Source of the DNA: an uncultured Acidobacteriota bacterium
GTDB lineage: Bacteria > Acidobacteriota > UBA6911 > RPQK01 > JAPXNP01
Reading direction: 5' to 3'
DNA: 64,000 bases
Assembly: GCA_963777605.1 (NCBI GenBank)
Contig: CAVZRV010000030.1
Location: forward strand, 160,001 to 224,000
The position numbers and the translations under genes were made by a program. Shown piece after piece: positions 2,173 to 14,481 of this stretch; the first letter of the stretch is position 1, and every line of letters begins with the position of its first letter. The notes under the pieces are model-generated. The model was not told the origin of the DNA. It made no database searches and was given only the letters and a program-made list of their open reading frames with translations.

Positions 2173-2592
2173 CTGAAGCTTTTGAAGGGGACCGCCCGGC
2201 CCTGCCGGACGACGCCAAAGGAGCCGAAACCGCGCGCCGGTGTTCCGAAGGCGCCGGGCCATCTTGACGCCTGCGCCAAGACCGAGTGGCGCCGGATCGT
2301 GCCCCAGCTTCAGGCCATGGGGATCCTGACATTACTCGACCGGGCGGCCCTGGCCGGCTACTGCCAGGCCTACTCCCGCTGGAAGAAGGCCGAAGAGGAC
2401 CTCGCCCAAAGCGGACTCCTGATCAAGACCACGGCCGGAAACGTCGTGCAAAGTCCGCTCGTCGGGATAGCCAACAAGGCGCTCCTCTTGATGCAGCGCT
2501 TCATCACCGAGTTCGGCCTGAGCCCGGCTTCCCGGTCGCGAGTCTCGGCGAACTCGAGCGATCGGGGAGACGACCCCTGGGCCAAACTGTAG
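2161..2592 (+). CDS. terS: Phage terminase small subunit, P27 family (possibly N-terminally clipped)
   Basis: PTKLKLLKG, APGHLD..AK.EWRRI, LD...LAGYCQAYSRW, QSP.V.IAN, EFGLSPASRSRV. Confidence 0.85.
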   Translation: MPTKLKLLKGTARPCRTTPKEPKPRAGVPKAPGHLDACAKTEWRRIVPQLQAMGILTLLDRAALAGYCQAYSRWKKAEEDLAQSGLLIKTTAGNVVQSPLVGIANKALLLMQRFITEFGLSPASRSRVSANSSDRGDDPWAKL

Positions 2593-3825
2593 AAGAAGGA
2601 TTCGTCTCTCGCGCCCGGCTCTATGCCGAGGCGGTCTCGGACGGGCGGATCCCGGTCTGCCGCTGGGTCGTGCGGGCCTGCGAACGGTTTCTTCGAGACC
2701 TGGAACGAAAGGACCTGCACTTTGATCCCGTGCCGGTCGAACGGTTTTGCCGGTTCGTGGAACTGCTGCCCCACGTCAAGGGGACCTGGGCGACGCCGAA
2801 CCTGACCCTCGAGCCCTGGCAGATCGCCAAAGAGATGGCCCGGCGGACACCGCCGTTTCTCGCCCGCTTCGGGGTCGAGGTCAATGCGCATACGCTGACC
2901 GTCCTCGCCGAGGCCGGCAAGTTCGAGCCGCTCTCGGCAGAAGCCAACTCGCTCGACGGGTTGAACGTCCACTGCGCCATCGTGGACGAGCTCCATGCCC
3001 ACAAGACCCGGGAGGTCTTCGACGTCCTCGAAACGGCGACCGGCGCGAGGCGCCAGCCGCTTCTGTGGTGCATCACGACGGTCGGCTCGAACCGGGCGGG
3101 GATCTGCTACGAGCAGCGCAGCTACGTCACGAAGATTCTTGACCGGGTCGTCACAGACGACACCTACTTCGGCGTCATCTATACGATCGACGACACCGAC
3201 GACTGGACCGACCCGCGGAACTGGGCGAAGGCCAACCCGAATTACGGGGTGTCGGTTCTCGAAGACGACATCGCGGCCATGATGATCCTGTTCCGTAACG
3301 AGGGACATTACCGGATCTTTGGGCGCTACTACCTGCCGGAAGAGACCGTCGAGACGGCGGCGAACTCGCAGTACGCCGGCTGGGGCGATCGAAGGACGGA
3401 TCATCTCAACCTCTGGGAATGTGATCGACTACGGCAGGATCGAGGAGGACCTGAAGGAACTCCGCAGTCGGTACGAGATCCAGGCAGTGGCCTACGACCC
3501 CTTCCAGGCGACCCAGTTCGCGACGCGCATGCTCGACGAAGGGTTCCCGATGGTGGAGGTGGGACAGACCACCCGGAACTTCTCCGAGCCGATGAAGGAA
3601 CTCGAAGCTGGTCTGAGCCGGAGGCTCGAGCACGACGGGGACCCGGTCCTGACCTGGATGGTCTCGAACGTGGTTTGCCACACTGACTCGAAGGACAATG
3701 TCTTTCCGCGCAAGGAACGCCCGGAGAACAAGATCGACAGGGTCGTCGCCACAATAATGGCTCTCGGCCGCGCCATGGCCGACGAGCAGGCCCGGCGGGA
3801 ACCGCGGATCCGGTTCGTTGGGTAG
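2577..3825 (+). pseudogene. terL: Phage terminase large subunit with two internal deletions and a frameshift
   Basis: LEPWQ, DGLN..AIVDELHAH (Walker B), KANPNYGVS, AYDP, KID.VVA present. Walker A segment absent after EPWQ (~2822), GxDL nuclease segment absent after EDDI (~3270), frameshift at tggggc 3381-3386. Confidence 0.88.
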
Positions 3826-6970: not shown

Positions 6971-9900
6971 CTATCGCAGATGGCCCTCCTGGAGGGGCTT
7001 GCGGATCATGCCCAGGCCCTTCTGACCGTCGAGGGCAACCAACAGCGGCTCTTTGAAATGCAGGTGTCTGAGGTGCCGGGTTTCAGAACAGGCGGGCTGC
7101 TCGTCGAGCCACTTCCAATCGAGAAAATGCTCCGCCTCGGGCCGGGACTTGTCGGCTCCCGGAGGAAGCGTCAGGTAGCCGATCCCCTGGGCGGTGACGT
7201 TGTGAAAGAAATGCGTTCCCTGGGAGGGGTCCACGTTGTATCCCTCGGGGGATGCTTCAACAATGACGCGTGCTGCGGAGATCTGTCCCCATTGGACTGG
7301 AATCCCCAACCACTCGTCCCCGGTTCCCCATCGCCCCGGGCCGATCAGGATGTAACCGCGCCGGTCGTGCTCCAATGCCATGTTGATTCGCCCGACTTCC
7401 TGGGCAATCTCCCGGTTCTGAGCCGCAGTCCAAGCGTCCCGCTTCACGTAAACCAGATCGCGGATCTCGCGGATCAGCCCGTGCCCGAGACTCCCCCGTG
7501 ACGAACAGATCAGATCGGGTCTTTCAAAGGGGATCGTGGCAGCCTCCGCGAGCGCCCGCTGCGTCATCAGGGGGCGCACCTGGAGCAGGTAGAGGATCGG
7601 CCAGATTCGTTCCCGTCCAATGGTCCTGCGCTTTCCCCAGTCGCCCATGTCGCAGGCAAATTCGATCTCGACGCCGCAGGCGAGGCCGCGCTCTGTGATT
7701 TGAAGGATCTTGGTGATCGTCTCGGGGAGAGGAATCACCCGATGTTTAAGGATGTTGTTGAACGTGATCACCCTGGGACCGGCCAGGTTCAAGTCATCCC
7801 GGATCTGGCGGTCAGCCTGGCTGAAGACGCTCGCGGCCAGTTTCAGGGTGCCGTCTTCTTCCGCTGCCTCGAGTCCGTAATAGCGCAGAGTTTCGTAGAG
7901 TTGCAGGTCGGATGAATTGAACTCTCGCTGCATGTCGAGCGCCCAGAAACCACGCTGGGAGTTGTCCAACAGCAGTTCCGGGTCGAAGAACTGGGGCATG
8001 ACCGCGGGGTGCCGGGGACTGAAGCGGAGAGCCCTGCCGCCGTCTACAATCTGGCGTCCGAGGCCCAACGCCATGTGGGCCAGACCGTCTTTGGGTCGCT
8101 GGGGACCGATCGGATAGTAGTTGTGGGACTGGGCGACGCCGGAGAAGTGAGGGTAGAATCGTTCTCCGAAAGGCTGACCGATGACCCTCTGAATGATCAC
8201 AGCCATTTGCTCCTCCTCGATACGGCTCCCCGTCGCCCCAAGGTACGACTTGGCATTGGAGAAGAAAGTCGAGGCGTAGACCAGTTTAACTGCCTCGCAC
8301 AGGTCGCGGAGACGGCTGTCGGGATCCGGATCCCGGTTCGGAATCATCAGGGTGGAGTAGATGCCGGCAAATGGCTGGTGGAGAGAATCCTCCAGCAGAC
8401 TGGACGACCGGATTGCCAGCGGGCCTTCGATCTTGTCGACGATAAGGTTTAGCTGCTCGATGAGGCCGGAGGGAAGGCGCCCTCGGATGAACCGGGCGCT
8501 AATCTCCTGGTCGTCCTGGGCTTCGTAAGCAAAGTCACGGAGGTCGTTCTCATCGAGGAAGGTATCAAACAGATCGGTCGTCACGACGACTGTCTGGGGA
8601 ACCCGCACCGGCAGTCCTGCGAATTCTCTGGGGTCAATGTCGGCCAGGGTCTGATACAGGAAGGCGATTCCCCGCGCTTTTCCGCCCAGGTATCCCGTTC
8701 CAATCCGGCTGAATTGGTCCTCGGCGAAGTAGTCGGAAGAGAAGTCGGAGACCAGCCCTCGATGAAGTCTCTCCCGGTTTTCCTTGAGTGTGTGGATGAG
8801 ATGCTGCCGCATAGCGCCGATCGAGGGGAAGTCGGAGATCTTCTTGGGACGGAGTTCTTCGGCCAGTTCGAATTCGCTGCGGGCCATCAACCAGATCGAA
8901 ATGTGATTGTATCCCGCGTGGTAGCGGAGGAGTTCTTCCGGGATCGCCGCCAGCTTGGCCTCCAGTTCGCGGAGGTCGCGGGCGCGGTCGAATTCTTTGT
9001 TGTCGGGAGTGCGAAAGATGAAATCTCCGAAACCGAGTCTGAGGGTCAGGAAATCGCGGACTGCCGCGAGCAGGCTGGTGGAGTTCTTGTCCAGGAATTG
9101 GGCCCCGATCGCCTCCGCCCGATCTCGATTCTGGGTTTCGGCGGACTGAAGCAGAATGGGGCACTCGGGATCGTGCTGAAGGGCATATTGCGCGAAGTCG
9201 AGTCCTGCCTCGGGATCGAGCGCACCGCGACGCGGGATTCGCACGTCGGAAATGACCGCCATAACGTTCTTGGAGTACTTCTTGAAGAGCTGAACGCCCT
9301 CCTCGAAAGAACGCGCGTGGAGTACTTTGGGACGGGACTGCATGAACATCTTCCGGTAGAGGTCGCTGACCCCTTCGGAGTAGAGCGCCAGTGACTGGCG
9401 CATGAGCTCCTTGTAGAGCTCGCCCAGGAAGGCGGAGTAGTACTGGGGAGAGTCCTCGATCATGATGATCACCCGGACATTTCCGTGACGCACGTCGTGA
9501 TCGACGTTGCGGCGGTCCTCGACGCTCTTGATCACCGCCAGGAGGATCAGAACATCACCCGTCCAGAGGAAGAATCCGTCCTGGGCTTCCGGGTCGATCG
9601 ATTCCTGGAACTGGATCGCCTCGTTGCGATCGAGTGCAAAGACGATCACCGGCATGCCCGGGACCATTTCCTTGACTTTCCGGCCGAAAGCGTTAACGTC
9701 CATGTCCACCAGGCTGGTCATGGTGAGGATCAGGTCGAAGCGGCGGCTCTGCAGGAACCGGAAGGCCTCTTCCCCGTTTGAAGCATGGATGAAGCGAGGC
9801 GCCGAGGAAAGACTGACCTCCCGATATTCGACGAAGAGGCGTTCCGTTAGGTGCCCGTCTTCCTGGAGGATGAACGCGTCATAGGGGGACGAAACCAGCA

Positions 9901-9973
9901 GGACTTCCCGCACCCGGTAAGGGAGCAGGTCATGGAAACGCCGGACGCTCGAAGTTTGCAGGTACCTGGTCAT
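6971..9973 (-). CDS. Receiver-domain/PPDK-N (PEP synthase-like ATP-grasp) fusion protein
   Basis: Two REC-like domains (DLILTM; MIEDS...VISDVR), then LGGKARG, AIRSSSLLEDS, FAGIYST, EIEFA, LLQVRP; C-terminal GPGRWG...SQGTHFF; no pyruvate-binding barrel. Confidence 0.85.
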   Translation of the reverse strand: MTRYLQTSSVRRFHDLLPYRVREVLLVSSPYDAFILQEDGHLTERLFVEYREVSLSSAPRFIHASNGEEAFRFLQSRRFDLILTMTSLVDMDVNAFGRKVKEMVPGMPVIVFALDRNEAIQFQESIDPEAQDGFFLWTGDVLILLAVIKSVEDRRNVDHDVRHGNVRVIIMIEDSPQYYSAFLGELYKELMRQSLALYSEGVSDLYRKMFMQSRPKVLHARSFEEGVQLFKKYSKNVMAVISDVRIPRRGALDPEAGLDFAQYALQHDPECPILLQSAETQNRDRAEAIGAQFLDKNSTSLLAAVRDFLTLRLGFGDFIFRTPDNKEFDRARDLRELEAKLAAIPEELLRYHAGYNHISIWLMARSEFELAEELRPKKISDFPSIGAMRQHLIHTLKENRERLHRGLVSDFSSDYFAEDQFSRIGTGYLGGKARGIAFLYQTLADIDPREFAGLPVRVPQTVVVTTDLFDTFLDENDLRDFAYEAQDDQEISARFIRGRLPSGLIEQLNLIVDKIEGPLAIRSSSLLEDSLHQPFAGIYSTLMIPNRDPDPDSRLRDLCEAVKLVYASTFFSNAKSYLGATGSRIEEEQMAVIIQRVIGQPFGERFYPHFSGVAQSHNYYPIGPQRPKDGLAHMALGLGRQIVDGGRALRFSPRHPAVMPQFFDPELLLDNSQRGFWALDMQREFNSSDLQLYETLRYYGLEAAEEDGTLKLAASVFSQADRQIRDDLNLAGPRVITFNNILKHRVIPLPETITKILQITERGLACGVEIEFACDMGDWGKRRTIGRERIWPILYLLQVRPLMTQRALAEAATIPFERPDLICSSRGSLGHGLIREIRDLVYVKRDAWTAAQNREIAQEVGRINMALEHDRRGYILIGPGRWGTGDEWLGIPVQWGQISAARVIVEASPEGYNVDPSQGTHFFHNVTAQGIGYLTLPPGADKSRPEAEHFLDWKWLDEQPACSETRHLRHLHFKEPLLVALDGQKGLGMIRKPLQEGHLR

Positions 9974-9986
9974 AGCCCGTCACATC

Positions 9987-11327
9987 TCACACCAGTCCCT
10001 GGTCGAGCATCGAATCGGCAACCTTTACAAAACCGCCTACGTTGGCGCCGTCCACATAGTTGATGAAGTCGCCGTCCCGGCCGCACTTGACACAAGTGGC
10101 GTGAATCTCCTTGATGATCAAGCGAAGGCGATCGTCGACTTCCTGCTTGGTCCAGGAGAAGCGCATCGAATTCTGGGTCATCTCCAGTCCCGAGACTGCC
10201 ACGCCCCCGGCGTTGGCCGCCTTTCCGGGTCCAAACAGGATCCCGGCATTGAGCAGCCTCTCGATGGCGGGCGGATCGCAGGGCATGTTGGCACCCTCTG
10301 CCACGCAGGTACAGCCGTTGTCGAGCAGCATCTGGGCGTCTTCTTCGTTGAGTTCGTTCTCGGTGGCACACGGAAGGGCGACATCACAGCGGACCGACCA
10401 TGGCCCCTGGCCCTCCAGGAATCGAGCGCTGGGGTAGATTTGCGGGTATTCACGTACCCGACCCCGTCGATGGTTCTTGAGGTCCATAACGTACTCGAGT
10501 TTCTCCGAGTCGATGCCTGTTTCATCGACAATAGTTCCACCCGAGTCCGAGAGCGTGACTACGACAGCGCCGAGTTCGAGCGCTTTGATGGCGGCAAACT
10601 GGGCCACATTTCCTGAACCAGAGATGGCAACGCGCTTCCCCTGGAGCGATTCTCCTCGGGTTCCCAGCATCTCCGAGGCGAAGTAGACCAGTCCATAACC
10701 GGTTGCCTCAGGTCTCATCAGGGAGCCGCCCCAATTTGCACCTTTCCCGGTCAGGACCCCCGTAAACCGGTTGGAGAGTTTCTTGTGCATTCCGAAAAGG
10801 AATCCGATTTCGCGGCCGCCGACGCCGACGTCGGCTCCCGGAACGCTGGTCTCCGGTCCCACGTGGCGATAGAGTTCCTGCATGTAGGCCTGGCAAAACC
10901 GCATAACTTCCGCATCGCTCTTGCCTTTTGGATCGAAGTCGGATCCCCCCTGTCCACCGCCCATCGGAAGGCTGGTCAGGCTGTTCTTGAACACCTGTTC
11001 AAAAGCAAGGAACTTCAGGATGCTCAGGTTTACGCTGGGGTGGAACCGCAAGCCACCCTTGTAAGGTCCCAGGGCGCTGTTCATGTCGACCTGAAAGCCA
11101 CGATTGACCCGGACTTCACCTTCATCATCCATCCAGGGCACTCGAAACATGAGCATCCGCTCCGGCTCGATGATCCGTTCCAGGATTTTTCCCGAGCGAT
11201 AGCGCGGGTTGGTTTCAATGACGGGGTAAACCGACTCGATCACCTCCTGGACTGCCTGATGGAATTCCTTCTCTCCCGGATTCTTCGTTCTCACCAAGGT
11301 CATGAATTCGCGTACGGGGCCGTTCAT
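9987..11327 (-). CDS. gdhA: NADP-specific glutamate dehydrogenase homologue (catalytic Lys replaced by Gln)
   Basis: GPYKGGLRFH, FKNSLT, RPEATGYG, GSGNVA, EGANMP, GKAANAGGVAVS; but GGGQGG instead of GGGKGG; SD gaggagga. Confidence 0.92.
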   Translation of the reverse strand: MNGPVREFMTLVRTKNPGEKEFHQAVQEVIESVYPVIETNPRYRSGKILERIIEPERMLMFRVPWMDDEGEVRVNRGFQVDMNSALGPYKGGLRFHPSVNLSILKFLAFEQVFKNSLTSLPMGGGQGGSDFDPKGKSDAEVMRFCQAYMQELYRHVGPETSVPGADVGVGGREIGFLFGMHKKLSNRFTGVLTGKGANWGGSLMRPEATGYGLVYFASEMLGTRGESLQGKRVAISGSGNVAQFAAIKALELGAVVVTLSDSGGTIVDETGIDSEKLEYVMDLKNHRRGRVREYPQIYPSARFLEGQGPWSVRCDVALPCATENELNEEDAQMLLDNGCTCVAEGANMPCDPPAIERLLNAGILFGPGKAANAGGVAVSGLEMTQNSMRFSWTKQEVDDRLRLIIKEIHATCVKCGRDGDFINYVDGANVGGFVKVADSMLDQGLV

Positions 11328-11365
11328 CTAATCCTCCTCATTTCCAACAGAATGCCACATCCGGC

Positions 11366-11790: not shown

Positions 11791-12126
11791 CTAGTCGAAC
11801 AGCTTCAATTGCATGGCCTCAGCGATGATATCGGTTTGATCGACTACGGATGCCGCGGAGACTCCCATGGCGATGCTGATAGTCTCGCTGATCTCTTCTT
11901 TGGTTGCTCCGTACTGGAGTGCTTTCTCAATGTGACCCTGCAGACAGCCCTGACACTTGAATCCCAGTGAAGCCGCAATGGCAATCAATTCCTTCTCCTT
12001 CCTCGGGATCTGGGAAGTCTTATAGGTCTCCTTGTAGAAATGGAAGTAGATCCGTTTCATTCGGCCCTCGACCATTGTGTAAGAAGGCCACTTGGCCGGC
12101 TTCTCTGCTGATGTCTTTTCTGGCAT
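11791..12126 (-). CDS. Carboxymuconolactone decarboxylase/AhpD family protein
   Basis: KEKELIAIAAS..KCQGCLQGH...ALQYGATKEEI.E with CxxC. Confidence 0.85.
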   Translation of the reverse strand: MPEKTSAEKPAKWPSYTMVEGRMKRIYFHFYKETYKTSQIPRKEKELIAIAASLGFKCQGCLQGHIEKALQYGATKEEISETISIAMGVSAASVVDQTDIIAEAMQLKLFD

Positions 12127-12252
12127 CGGCGATAACTCCTGGGATTGCTGAGGAAAGCCCACATTATAGCAACAATCTTCTGAAAGGCCGGAATGCCCCC
12201 GTGAAGCAACTCGAGCTTCATGGGGAGTGGATCCCCTGCTATCTTTATCGTC

Positions 12253-14481
12253 ATGTTTGAAAGGGGGCGGACAATTTCGAGACAGGCGGCCAGGATCATC
12301 AGTCTGCGGCCGGCCCTGGTTTGCCTCTTTCTTCTCGTCCTGAGCTTCAACTCACGGGCCCAGGAACGACCTCGGGTCGAGGTCCCCTATGGCAATTTGA
12401 ATTTCGTTCTGGAAGCGGATCGGATCGAGCGCCTCGAGAACGGTGAGATTCTCGCCGAGGGCGACGTGCATGCGACCTACTCCGATGCAACCCTGAACGC
12501 GGAACGGGTGACCTACGACCCGACCAGGGACCTCGTGGTCATCGAGGGAGAGTTCGAGATCAAGCGGGCCCAGGGCTGGCTGCAGGGCTCCCGGGCCGAG
12601 TTGAACGTGAAGGAGGATACCGGGGTAATCTATGACCCCTACGGCTTCACCGATGAAGAGGTTTTCGTAAGGGCGAAGAAACTGACCAAAGTGGGGCCGA
12701 CCACCTACATTGCCGAAGAGGGTTACCTGACCGCCTGTGAGGAGGCGGTTCCCAAGTGGAGCTTCAAGATCAAGAAAGCGGTCATCAATACCGACAGCAC
12801 CGCCCGCCTACGGAGTGCGTGGTTCCGGATCAAAAAGGCCCCGGTCTTCTACTTTCCCTACCTGATTCTGCCGACCGCGAAAAAGGAGCGCTCGAGTGGT
12901 TTCATGCTCCCATCGACCGGGACCTCCAACAACAAGGGCCGCCGGCTGACCAACCGGTTCTACCTGGTCATGGGGCGCAGCGCGGATCTTATGCTGGTGC
13001 ACGATTACTATTCCGAACGCGGCCAGGGGGCCGGCTTCAACCTGCGTACCCGTCCCGACGAAGTTTCCCGACTCGACTTGTCGGGGCGTTTTGTCAACGA
13101 CCGCCTTGGGCAGGGCGGAAGTGCACTTGAAGGGACCGGGTACACAACGCTTGGGAGCGGTTTTCGGGCAGTGGCCGATTTCACCCTGGTCTCCAGCTTC
13201 CAGTTTCGCCAGGTCTTTTCCGACAACTTCTTCACGGCAACGCGTCCGAGCGAGGAATCGCGACTTTTTCTGACCAACAACTCCAGTTTGAGATCATTGA
13301 ATCTGCTGGTTTCGCGGGAACAGACGATTTCACCGGGTCGAAACATCGTCACGCAGGCAACCCCCGAGGTTGAGCTCCAGCTCCTGGGCCAGAAGCTCGG
13401 CAACCTGCCACTTCACATCGATCTCGAGAGTTCAGTCGGGGGGATGAGTCGTACCGATTCGCTGATTGAGACTCCCCGAATCAGTCAGCGGTTGGACCTT
13501 TTCCCACGAGTCTATTTCTCGATGCCCCTGTTTCAGGGGCTCCGGTTGACACCGCGGCTGGGCGTCAGGGAGACGTTTTACAGCGACTCAATCAACGCTA
13601 ACGAAGACGGGGAGCGGGTTGTGACCGGGGCCAGCGTTCACCGGCAGTACGTGGATTTTACGGCTGATCTGAAAGGTTGGGGCGTTTCCAGAGTCTTTGG
13701 GGATCCCGGCGGAAACCAGTGGAAACACCTGGTGGAACCGGAGGTTCGCTATCGGCTCCTCTCGGGAGTCAACGAATTCGACCGGATCATCCGCTTCGAT
13801 GCGGTGGATGCCATCGCCGACACCAACGAGGTCGAGTACTCGATCGTCAACCGCTTCTTCGTGAAGCGGTCCAGCAATAGCCAGATCCATGAGTGGCTGT
13901 CAGTCAAGATCGCCCAGAAGCACTTTTTCGATCCCACGTTCGGTGGTGCTCTTCAGGAAGGGCGGATCAACCAGTTCTTTCCACTCAACTCACTTTCGGG
14001 ACACCCGTATGCGGTCGGTTTTCGCGACTTTTCTCCCATTACAACGCTCGTTCGATTGACGCCGGATTCCCGGGTAAACTTCGATTTCCGGTCGGACTAC
14101 GATACCCAGAGCGGGGACTTTCGCAGTCTCTCGGCCACTGGCTATTATCGTCGCGACGACCTGACCCTGGCCACCACCTACTTCGTCACCAACGAACTCC
14201 TGACCGGGATTGGCCGAAGCAACCAGCTCCAGGGAAGGGTGGGGGTCGGTCGGCACGACCGGGGCATCTCTGCTTTCGGATACTTCAGTTACGACATCAA
14301 GGACTCGACATTTCTCAACCACCTGGTGCGGCTCAACTATTTCTGGGACTGTTGCGGGGTATCCGTCGAAACCAGCGGATTCAATCTTTCTTCGCGCAAG
14401 GAGCAGGATATTCGGTTCACTTTCTATCTCAAAGGCATCGGAGCTTTCGGCACTATACGGCGGCCCGATATGGTGTTCTGA
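12253..14481 (+). CDS. lptD: LPS-assembly protein LptD (start uncertain, 12220-12253)
   Basis: LEADRI/AEGDV jellyroll N-terminus, TAC...P.W, PVFYFPY, RSSGF.LP, beta-barrel with terminal YFWDCC. Confidence 0.88.
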   Translation: MFERGRTISRQAARIISLRPALVCLFLLVLSFNSRAQERPRVEVPYGNLNFVLEADRIERLENGEILAEGDVHATYSDATLNAERVTYDPTRDLVVIEGEFEIKRAQGWLQGSRAELNVKEDTGVIYDPYGFTDEEVFVRAKKLTKVGPTTYIAEEGYLTACEEAVPKWSFKIKKAVINTDSTARLRSAWFRIKKAPVFYFPYLILPTAKKERSSGFMLPSTGTSNNKGRRLTNRFYLVMGRSADLMLVHDYYSERGQGAGFNLRTRPDEVSRLDLSGRFVNDRLGQGGSALEGTGYTTLGSGFRAVADFTLVSSFQFRQVFSDNFFTATRPSEESRLFLTNNSSLRSLNLLVSREQTISPGRNIVTQATPEVELQLLGQKLGNLPLHIDLESSVGGMSRTDSLIETPRISQRLDLFPRVYFSMPLFQGLRLTPRLGVRETFYSDSINANEDGERVVTGASVHRQYVDFTADLKGWGVSRVFGDPGGNQWKHLVEPEVRYRLLSGVNEFDRIIRFDAVDAIADTNEVEYSIVNRFFVKRSSNSQIHEWLSVKIAQKHFFDPTFGGALQEGRINQFFPLNSLSGHPYAVGFRDFSPITTLVRLTPDSRVNFDFRSDYDTQSGDFRSLSATGYYRRDDLTLATTYFVTNELLTGIGRSNQLQGRVGVGRHDRGISAFGYFSYDIKDSTFLNHLVRLNYFWDCCGVSVETSGFNLSSRKEQDIRFTFYLKGIGAFGTIRRPDMVF

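Follow-up and report, generated by a model that had tools for sequence, protein, structure and literature searches.

An open reading frame (ORF) in a 64,000-nucleotide stretch of DNA from an uncultured Acidobacteriota bacterium (assembly GCA_963777605.1, contig CAVZRV010000030.1, positions 160,001 to 224,000 of the forward strand; hereafter the window) encodes a glutamate dehydrogenase (GDH) homologue of the gdhA class in which the catalytic lysine is replaced by a glutamine, Gln126. The change from Lys to Gln is real, inherited and maintained. The gene lies beside one for a receiver-dikinase-like protein, called the partner here, and this pairing of GDH and partner is ancient and widespread, mostly with an ordinary Lys-bearing GDH. 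On balance, sequence comparison leads us to favour a model in which the window protein is a catalytically impaired, ligand-binding companion of the partner. In this model the GDH-fold protein would have lost, wholly or largely, the interconversion of glutamate and 2-oxoglutarate, would still bind NADP(H) together with a dicarboxylate such as glutamate or 2-oxoglutarate, and would act as a non-catalytic, ligand-reporting companion of its co-transcribed, receiver-gated and dikinase-like neighbour, with information or the bound ligand itself passing from GDH to partner.

The window protein has the make-up of a complete GDH. The Pfam domains PF02812 (4.3e-47, residues 55-181) and PF00208 (1.1e-85, residues 200-444) span its full length, and it scores 712.8 bits against a cut-off of 536 for NF006929, the NCBIfam equivalog of NADP-specific GDH. 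The nearest solved structures found with HMMER are those of E. coli GdhA, 4fcc and 3sbo/4bht (E of 4e-177 and 3.6e-176); the C. glutamicum GDH structures 5ijz/5gud are also full-length matches, and the two species together cover an E range of 4e-177 to 2e-168. Identity to E. coli GDH, read off the alignment, is 63-65% over the full length. In this alignment Gln126, in the region ...FKNSLTSLPMGGGQGGSDFDP..., stands opposite the Lys of E. coli GGGKGG, and it breaks the pattern GG[GA]KGG that marks the catalytic lysine of the ELFV (Glu/Leu/Phe/Val) dehydrogenases. A second alteration lies in the loop region ...ETSVPGADVGVGG..., where S161-V-P-G-A-D166 stands opposite D-V-P-A-G-D; the catalytic Asp166 is retained, and the two residues preceding it change from Ala-Gly to Gly-Ala. 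The motifs GPYKGG (K90), FKNSL (K114, with Q111 before it), GSGNVA and GGVAVS (S379) are intact, as is the frame, which starts with ATG at 11327. Each of these features had been claimed in a first-pass annotation made from the letters of the window, namely a CAG codon for Gln at the active site, the SVPGADVG loop, the retained motifs and a strong Shine-Dalgarno sequence, and the ORF, its translation and the alignment show all of these statements to be correct. Retention of the glutamate- and NADP-binding motifs, in particular, is seen equally in the alignment to relatives and throughout the Gln-bearing group.

The altered positions surround the part of the substrate at which the reaction takes place. 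Residue numbers of the C. symbiosum enzyme equal those of the window protein minus one in the N-terminal half, so that the changed residues there are K125, A163 and G164. In that numbering, according to a recent report (bioRxiv 10.1101/2024.12.26.630402), the substrate amino group is faced by the G164 carbonyl and the D165 carboxylate, its alpha-carboxylate by K113 and Q110. In the window protein the Asp and the carboxylate binders are kept. As for the lysine itself, Stillman and co-workers reportedly described it in 1993 as acting by general acid/base chemistry and holding the catalytic water and the substrate 2-position in place, with no covalent Schiff base. By this mechanism the label 'Schiff-base-forming', which the first-pass annotation had attached to the residue, is imprecise.

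The same substitution recurs in independent material. Among 11 relatives of 69-81% identity, Gln occupies the catalytic column in five (G010, G014, G002, G001 and G006) and Lys in the other six; the Gln-bearing five fall in three genera besides the window's own. These relatives come from a search of 41 related genomes, 38 of which have an ELFV match at E<=1e-20 (G018, which is unpublished, is counted here). Of 8000 scored database proteins, the best 120 read K in 94 cases, Q in 22 (the window protein counted), E in two, M in one and T in one, and one database protein of independent source, P0002, is 94% identical and has the same QGG and SVPGADVG. The Gln codon is CAG in all six Gln-type genes for which DNA is available, and the neighbouring Gly codons vary. 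A representative library clustered at 50%, in which the gdhA class collapses, gave an uninformative search. Public sequencing runs yielded two weak DNA matches (shares 0.06 and 0.05), with no RNA run listed and no near-identical contig spanning the Gln codon; the matching pieces are all short, and a lone identical read contig spans 10792-10946 and ends short of it.

These comparisons bear on whether the Gln might be a sequencing or assembly error, or the mark of a decaying pseudogene. The assembly does lend itself to such suspicion, being divided into 53 contigs with 5.68% contamination and containing another GDH gene that is frameshifted. Separately assembled genomes and metagenomes nevertheless show the same residue, the reading frame is unbroken, and the ratio of nonsynonymous to synonymous substitution rates (dN/dS) is about 0.05-0.1. 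This explanation is therefore dismissed, and we give it next to no credence. The earlier argument against a single base-call error is borne out by the independent recurrence of Gln, and the outcome that would have spoken against the annotation, that close relatives all keep Lys, is not what the five Gln-bearing relatives display.

The distribution of Gln is consistent with common descent. In a quick maximum-likelihood tree of 77 rows, every Gln row falls inside one 31-row group (SH-aLRT 86), which also includes four Lys rows with odd loops (DVLGGD, DVLGSD, DVPGSD). For a test of origin, the motif columns were removed before tree building and the 27 Gln rows were constrained together. The free tree has two changes between Q and non-Q, and keeping the 27 Gln rows together improves the log-likelihood by 15.9 units, with a p value of 0.783 in the approximately unbiased test (p-AU); a single origin of Gln is thus not rejected. 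Alignment and tree likewise agree with the prediction that the K-to-Q and PAGD-to-PGAD changes would co-occur as a clade. Within the 22 Gln proteins, Gly stands at position 164 in 19 and Thr, Ala or Ser at position 165 in 20, the loop varying among PGAD, PGTD, PGSD, PASD and PAGD, the last in three of the 22. Genes of the Gln type and of the Lys type are both clearly constrained by purifying selection, which supports the claim of an intact, maintained gene. Pairwise dN/dS (NG86) is 0.043-0.126 for Q-Q pairs and 0.055-0.157 for K-K pairs, values that are rough, with dS saturated (1.2-3.7) and some pairs not computable.

The changes shared by the Gln group are few and localized. In 87 canonical relatives, 243 alignment columns show an invariance of 97% or more, and 208 of these hold the same residue in at least 90% of the 22 Gln-type proteins. 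The departing columns fall almost entirely within residues 79-126 and 164-209, in the substrate domain near the reaction centre, with the changes Y89F, G102S, V112T, G125A, K126Q, A164G, G165T/A/S, E187R and I204M/V. K90, Q111, K114, D166, R205 and S379 are retained, and the dinucleotide domain is essentially unaltered, with GSGNVA and the S260-D261-S262 region invariant. At the level of sequence, the group therefore combines a replaced lysine with a retained dinucleotide site, the combination known from ADLP-like pseudoenzyme sensors derived from dehydrogenases. Elsewhere in the same lineage the lysine is changed to Glu (two cases), Met (one) and Thr (one), and K90 to Glu, although variants present in a single sequence could be errors. 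Pocket alterations also occur in several Lys-bearing members (G004, at loci L008/L037; G013, at L011; P0025, P0093, P0067 and P0081), which have GPFKSG with DVLGGD, or GPYEGG in which K90 has become Glu. This damage to the pocket of Lys-bearing members suggests that catalytic constraint may be relaxed in the family beyond the Gln clade.

The same pattern can be read in another way, as that of a neofunctionalised oxidoreductase. The remodelled centre (Gln126, Gly164, Thr/Ala/Ser165 and Asp166) might run a different NADP(H) reaction on a glutamate-like dicarboxylate, for example by reducing 2-oxoglutarate to 2-hydroxyglutarate, or by converting an N-substituted substrate without need of a Lys-activated water. 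The changes are, after all, few, recurrent and confined to the surroundings of the substrate 2-position, the carboxylate and cofactor binders are intact, Gln is present in 22 of 22 clade members with no drift, and purifying selection matches that on true GDHs in strength. The non-uniform loop, however, fits relaxed constraint better than a precise new site, and other lineages of the module have lost the lysine to Glu, Met or Thr, or have lost K90. We know of no ELFV member with such altered chemistry, and the literature consulted gave none. We regard this explanation as the main rival, a serious but lesser possibility.

The setting of the gene is conserved too. The partner ORF begins 13 nt past the GDH stop codon, and the partner adjoins the GDH gene in all nine relatives with a GDH of 70% identity or higher, whether of the Gln or the Lys type, and in none of the six with a GDH of 55-59% identity. 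Of 301 genomes sampled from the phylum, 133 contain the partner family at E<=1e-40. Twenty Acidobacteriota loci chosen from the top full-length partner matches include 16 with a gdhA-type GDH next to the partner, all bearing Lys. A pattern scan with one genome per species returned at least 597 partner relatives; in the best 80 loci, 46 have a GDH within the 6-kb flanks (44 of the gdhA type and two of another class), again all with Lys. By record title these 80 loci belong to Bacteroidota, Ignavibacteria, Desulfobacterales, Eisenbacteria, Gemmatimonadota, Myxococcota, Actinomycetota, Thermoplasmata and others, and a protein atlas contains the same partner architecture as unnamed clusters in Thermodesulfobacteriota and Bacteroidota. 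All partner loci obtained, taken together, hold 74 gdhA-type GDHs with Lys and five with Gln, the five all from the window's family, along with 12 distant-type GDHs with Lys and one that is unreadable. Because the pair elsewhere keeps the lysine, the Gln form represents an in-place loss within a conserved two-gene module. The link of the GDH to a gene with REC and PPDK-N domains, which the first-pass annotation had drawn, is borne out by adjacency in relatives, in the phylum and in many other phyla. ORF clustering of 100 partner loci gave no third conserved neighbour, the larger clusters being GDH, the partner and antisense ORFs within the partner, and pattern scans around the operon for promoters, terminators and sigma-54-like sites gave nothing above shuffled expectation. 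A separate database protein of 653 aa, P0005, combines a PF13241 NAD-binding domain with a Lys-type GDH (65% identity to the window protein), and may be a fusion or a gene-calling artefact.

This conservation also weighs on the simplest alternative, that the window protein is an ordinary, if slower, GDH in which the substitution is tolerated. Its equivalog score, far above the cut-off, and its full-length identity to E. coli GDH are what such an enzyme would display. In addition, McPherson and co-workers reportedly found in 1988 that K128 mutants of E. coli GDH keep a little residual activity. Against this stands the presence of Lys in every one of the 74 gdhA-type and 12 distant-type GDHs that accompany the partner outside the clade, and in 94 of the 120 nearest proteins; the conservation of the lysine implies that it matters for the normal reaction. 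Moreover, two more substrate-contacting positions have changed alongside it. An ordinary GDH of reduced speed consequently seems to us unlikely.

The remaining nitrogen enzymes of the genome suggest how the lysine could be lost. The assembly (6.73 Mb, 96.7% complete, 5.7% contamination) contains no second gdhA-class gene; the search for a canonical gdhA elsewhere in the genome, which the first-pass annotation had proposed, was run and found none. The only other ELFV gene lies on a separate contig (C7:1064078-1065146 of the window genome, G000; about 1029-2448 of locus L002, minus strand), is 30% identical and reads FGGAKGG and DVPAPDYG. It is interrupted by a one-base frameshift between '...PAALE' and 'NGQLTAENAPRIKAKIV...', which may be an assembly error or a genuine pseudogene; its orthologues in relatives are intact, at 472-530 aa. 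If the frameshift is true, the window genome is without any one-piece GDH bearing the catalytic lysine. In each Gln-type genome examined, one or more further ELFV paralogues carry the Lys, the Asp and the GDH-type Ser; one class of these is close to the Thermotoga GDH (1b26, E 1.6e-154), and none of the six Gln-type genomes has a second gdhA-class copy. Glutamate synthase (GOGAT) and two glutamine synthetase genes are present in the window genome. With other ELFV classes and the GOGAT/glutamine synthetase route available, loss of gdhA activity would be affordable. The lack of a same-class twin also decides against one form of the original proposal. Assembly into a hetero-hexamer with a catalytic sister subunit, as in Thermus GdhA, is rejected, and the suggestion that the protein is the regulatory subunit of a GDH hetero-oligomer is accordingly unlikely.

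The partner, whose domains are listed in Table 1, matches PF01326 (PPDK_N, 1.2e-33) and PF00072 (receiver, 3.2e-09) in Pfam. An AlphaFold2 (AF2) model built from a 68-row alignment (pLDDT 83.2, pTM 0.73) is matched by Foldseek to rifampin phosphotransferase (5hv1, 5.2e-11), phosphoenolpyruvate (PEP) synthase (2ols, 6.4e-08) and pyruvate phosphate dikinase (PPDK; 1kbl, 3.5e-06), with E values for the dikinase group from 5e-11 to 1e-5, and its receivers to PleD. In alignments of 17 and 68 rows, D243 and K296 of the second receiver are invariant or near-invariant, and the ATP-grasp domain has as invariants GGKxRG at 430-435, RSS at 522-524 and E528. A short helical segment resembles DUF5752 weakly (E 3.9e-4, which fails the cut-off). 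The C-terminal domain, folded alone, gives an AF2 model with pLDDT 93.3, and its His921 is invariant in 68 of 68 rows. The top VIA-align row for this domain is the phosphoryl-carrier domain of PPDK (2fm4, Z 6.8, rmsd 3.7, 119 aligned), followed by 1vbg (PPDK, Z 6.4), 2e28 (the PEP-utiliser-like C-domain of pyruvate kinase, Z 6.3) and residues 756-867 of 5hv1 (its His domain, Z 6.2). Z values of 6.2-6.8 are middling and no proof alone, yet they point to the cognate domains of the very families matched by the adjoining ATP-grasp. The domain has no Pfam match, PF00391 (PEP-utilisers) included, and no Foldseek match at E<=0.001. From these models we read the partner as a putative receiver-gated, dikinase-like enzyme. 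Its residues D243, K296, K432, R434, R522, S523, S524, E528, D529 and H921 are kept in all six Gln-type genomes.

Table 1. Coordinates, in the window, of the lysine-less GDH gene, its partner and their parts.
Feature	Position	Strand	Remark
gdhA-class GDH homologue, Gln126 replacing the catalytic Lys	9987..11327	minus	446 aa; ORF and translation
Gln126 codon CAG, at the catalytic-Lys position (E. coli K128, C. symbiosum K125)	10950..10952	minus	
Loop SVPGADVG, residues 161-168, in place of DVPAGDIG	10824..10847	minus	
Shine-Dalgarno-like GAGGAGG, 5 nt 5' of the ATG	11333..11339	minus	direct sequence reading
Partner: REC-like, REC, DUF5752-like, PPDK_N ATP-grasp and His-bearing C-terminal domain	6971..9973	minus	1000 aa
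Partner, first REC-like domain	9479-9916	minus	no Asp at the acceptor position (sequence reading)
Partner, second receiver, residues about 166-313, Asp243 and Lys296	9035..9478	minus	limits from model
Partner, PPDK_N-type ATP-grasp, residues about 420-810	7544..8716	minus	Pfam, Foldseek, alignments
Partner, C-terminal domain, residues about 820-995, His921 in PSQGTHFF, swivel-like fold	6989..7516	minus	

Two further positions of the partner differ in the Gln-type genomes. Ser428 (8690-8692), beside GGKARG, is Tyr in the six Gln-type genomes and in G004, and Asn203 (9365-9367) has become Ser in just the six Gln-type genomes. In 65 other partners the conservation of Ser428 and of Asn203 exceeds 90%, and the pattern is confounded by shared descent. 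In many genomes a second protein of about 600 aa, homologous to partner residues about 400-993 and without receivers, is encoded a few kb from the full-length partner (loci L054, L061 and L062; genomes G290, G272, G094, G050, G041, G096 and G093); none lies beside the window pair.

The architecture of the partner invites the idea that the GDH-fold protein serves not as a sensor but as the partner's substrate or docking platform, being phosphorylated itself or offering a bound molecule to the His of the swivel-like domain. Alongside its ATP-grasp, the partner contains a swivel-like domain in which a His is invariant, and neither Pfam nor the model recognizes a third, acceptor-binding domain (a PEP/pyruvate barrel or a rifampin-binding domain) in it, from which absence is not concluded. 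The GDH is moreover the partner's sole conserved neighbour, and VadK, a PPDK-derived kinase, is described as binding metabolic enzymes (PMC13400623). If phosphorylation only tuned GDH catalysis, however, keeping a lysine-less pair would be pointless, and no acceptor residue has been identified. We consider a role as substrate or platform improbable. Modelling partner residues 1-410 (68-row alignment) and the GDH (62-row alignment) as a complex gave a score of 0.00 and no verdict; it neither supports nor opposes binding.

The reading of the window protein as a catalytically impaired, ligand-reporting companion of the partner remains the one that we prefer, and its parts are drawn from sequence: loss of turnover, retention of ligand binding, coupling to the partner and a direction from GDH to partner are each inferred from the pattern of replaced and retained residues and from the conserved pairing. 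The direction in particular is suggested by the maintenance of the pair with a sole GDH that has no catalytic lysine. Were the partner there only to turn GDH catalysis on and off, such a pair would be expected to decay; both genes are conserved instead, and a flow from GDH to partner is likelier. Several observations weigh against this reading. An invariant Gln, with the Asp and the carboxylate binders kept, is also expected of an enzyme with altered chemistry. Branches of the Gln clade are only modestly longer in the tree than those of Lys-type relatives, the Lys-bearing clade members with odd loops (DVLGGD, DVPGSD) blur the order and meaning of the changes, and saturation of dS makes the measured constraint approximate. 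Finally, Gln need not mean zero turnover, to judge from the K128 mutants mentioned above.

A broader model can be put forward tentatively, and we hold it to be less probable than the proposal for the window protein. Across many phyla and some archaea, GDH may serve as the integral metabolite-sensing subunit of an ATP enzyme that is gated by receivers and dependent on a His, the two forming an undescribed carbon/nitrogen signalling device. The Gln clade of this Acidobacteriota family would then be a natural separation-of-function mutant, showing that what GDH does for the module is independent of GDH chemistry.

The genes flanking the pair fall into two groups. Just downstream of the partner lies a terminase large-subunit ORF (2286-3686, plus strand; PF03354 1.8e-12 and PF20441 1.9e-05), surrounded by ORFs without a Pfam match; this is probably a prophage remnant, at which the two-gene operon ends. 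Upstream of the GDH gene lie a carboxymuconolactone-decarboxylase-family gene (11791-12162, minus strand) and lptD (12220-14481, plus strand), an order kept in several relatives, with the former present in six and LptD in five of 15 related loci. The LptD orthologue beside the module in G010 (L033, 4064-6971) is divided into three overlapping ORFs; indel errors are probable there and advise caution with frameshift calls.

Whatever its exact function, the window protein carries a practical consequence. Automatic annotation calls it an NADP-specific glutamate dehydrogenase because it passes the NCBIfam equivalog, and metabolic reconstructions of these Acidobacteriota would then credit them with an ammonium-assimilating or glutamate-degrading enzyme that is possibly absent. 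The clade is also a natural experiment of unusual clarity, in which the sole GDH of a conserved pair is without its catalytic lysine, has no catalytic twin and is under selection together with its neighbour. Loss of the lysine in place, with both genes selected, argues that the function of the pair exceeds the switching of GDH activity. Comparison of Lys-type with Gln-type orthologues hence gives a handle on a widespread GDH/receiver-dikinase module. Full-text searches found no paper on a GDH/receiver-PPDK_N pair or on a GDH with Gln for Lys, subscription journals and supplementary files lying outside their reach.

A comparison with characterized systems shows how familiar components are combined here in an unfamiliar manner. 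The NADP-GDHs of E. coli (3sbo/4bht, 4fcc) and C. glutamicum (5ijz/5gud) have the same class, length and domain order as the window protein, and share with it the carboxylate-binding Lys, the catalytic Asp, the GGVAVS Ser and GSGNVA. The window protein, in contrast, has Gln for Lys and PGAD for PAGD, and its gene shares a transcript with one for a receiver-dikinase-like protein. Among known proteins, those nearest to the partner are the PEP-utilising dikinases and their derivatives (5hv1, 2ols, 1kbl/1vbg, PigC/RedH and VadK), with which it has an ATP-grasp domain in common; the swivel domains of these families are the best structural matches of its His-bearing C-terminal domain. Unlike them, it possesses two N-terminal receivers and a DUF5752-like segment, and has no recognisable acceptor-binding domain.

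Regulatory roles for dehydrogenase homologues have several precedents. That of a non-catalytic GDH subunit in Thermus, invoked in the first-pass annotation, is in print: two reports describe Thermus thermophilus GdhA as a catalytically inactive regulatory GDH subunit (PMC9570180; bioRxiv 10.1101/2025.10.31.685773). The GdhA-GdhB hetero-hexamer (3aoe) has an inactive GDH homologue in a regulatory role, as proposed for the window protein. Thermus GdhA, however, is a GDH of another class (it matches the window protein at E of only about 6e-61) and co-assembles with an adjacent catalytic paralogue, whereas the window genome is without a same-class catalytic copy. The second of these reports also presents ADLP of T. 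thermophilus, an alanine dehydrogenase (AlaDH)-like protein whose catalytic Lys is replaced and which binds NAD(H), senses NAD+ and regulates a CoA transferase. ADLP resembles the window protein as an amino-acid-dehydrogenase homologue with a replaced Lys and a retained dinucleotide site, the latter at the sequence level only in the window. It differs in having the AlaDH rather than the ELFV fold, in its partner and in its birth by duplication; the window gene appears to be the module's original GDH altered in place. RocG and GudB of Bacillus subtilis are portrayed as 'trigger enzymes', GDHs through which the transcription factor GltC is controlled (PMC6794564). There the ligand state of a GDH is relayed to a regulatory partner by protein contact, as may be the case for the window protein, although RocG has catalytic activity and is partnered by a DNA-binding protein of the LysR type in place of an ATP-grasp/His enzyme. 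Neither inactive GDH homologues nor pseudoenzymes derived from dehydrogenases are thus new in themselves. The window protein differs from them in being of the gdhA class, in joining Gln to a co-varying loop, in its in-place origin without a catalytic twin and in its tie to an uncharacterised receiver-dikinase.

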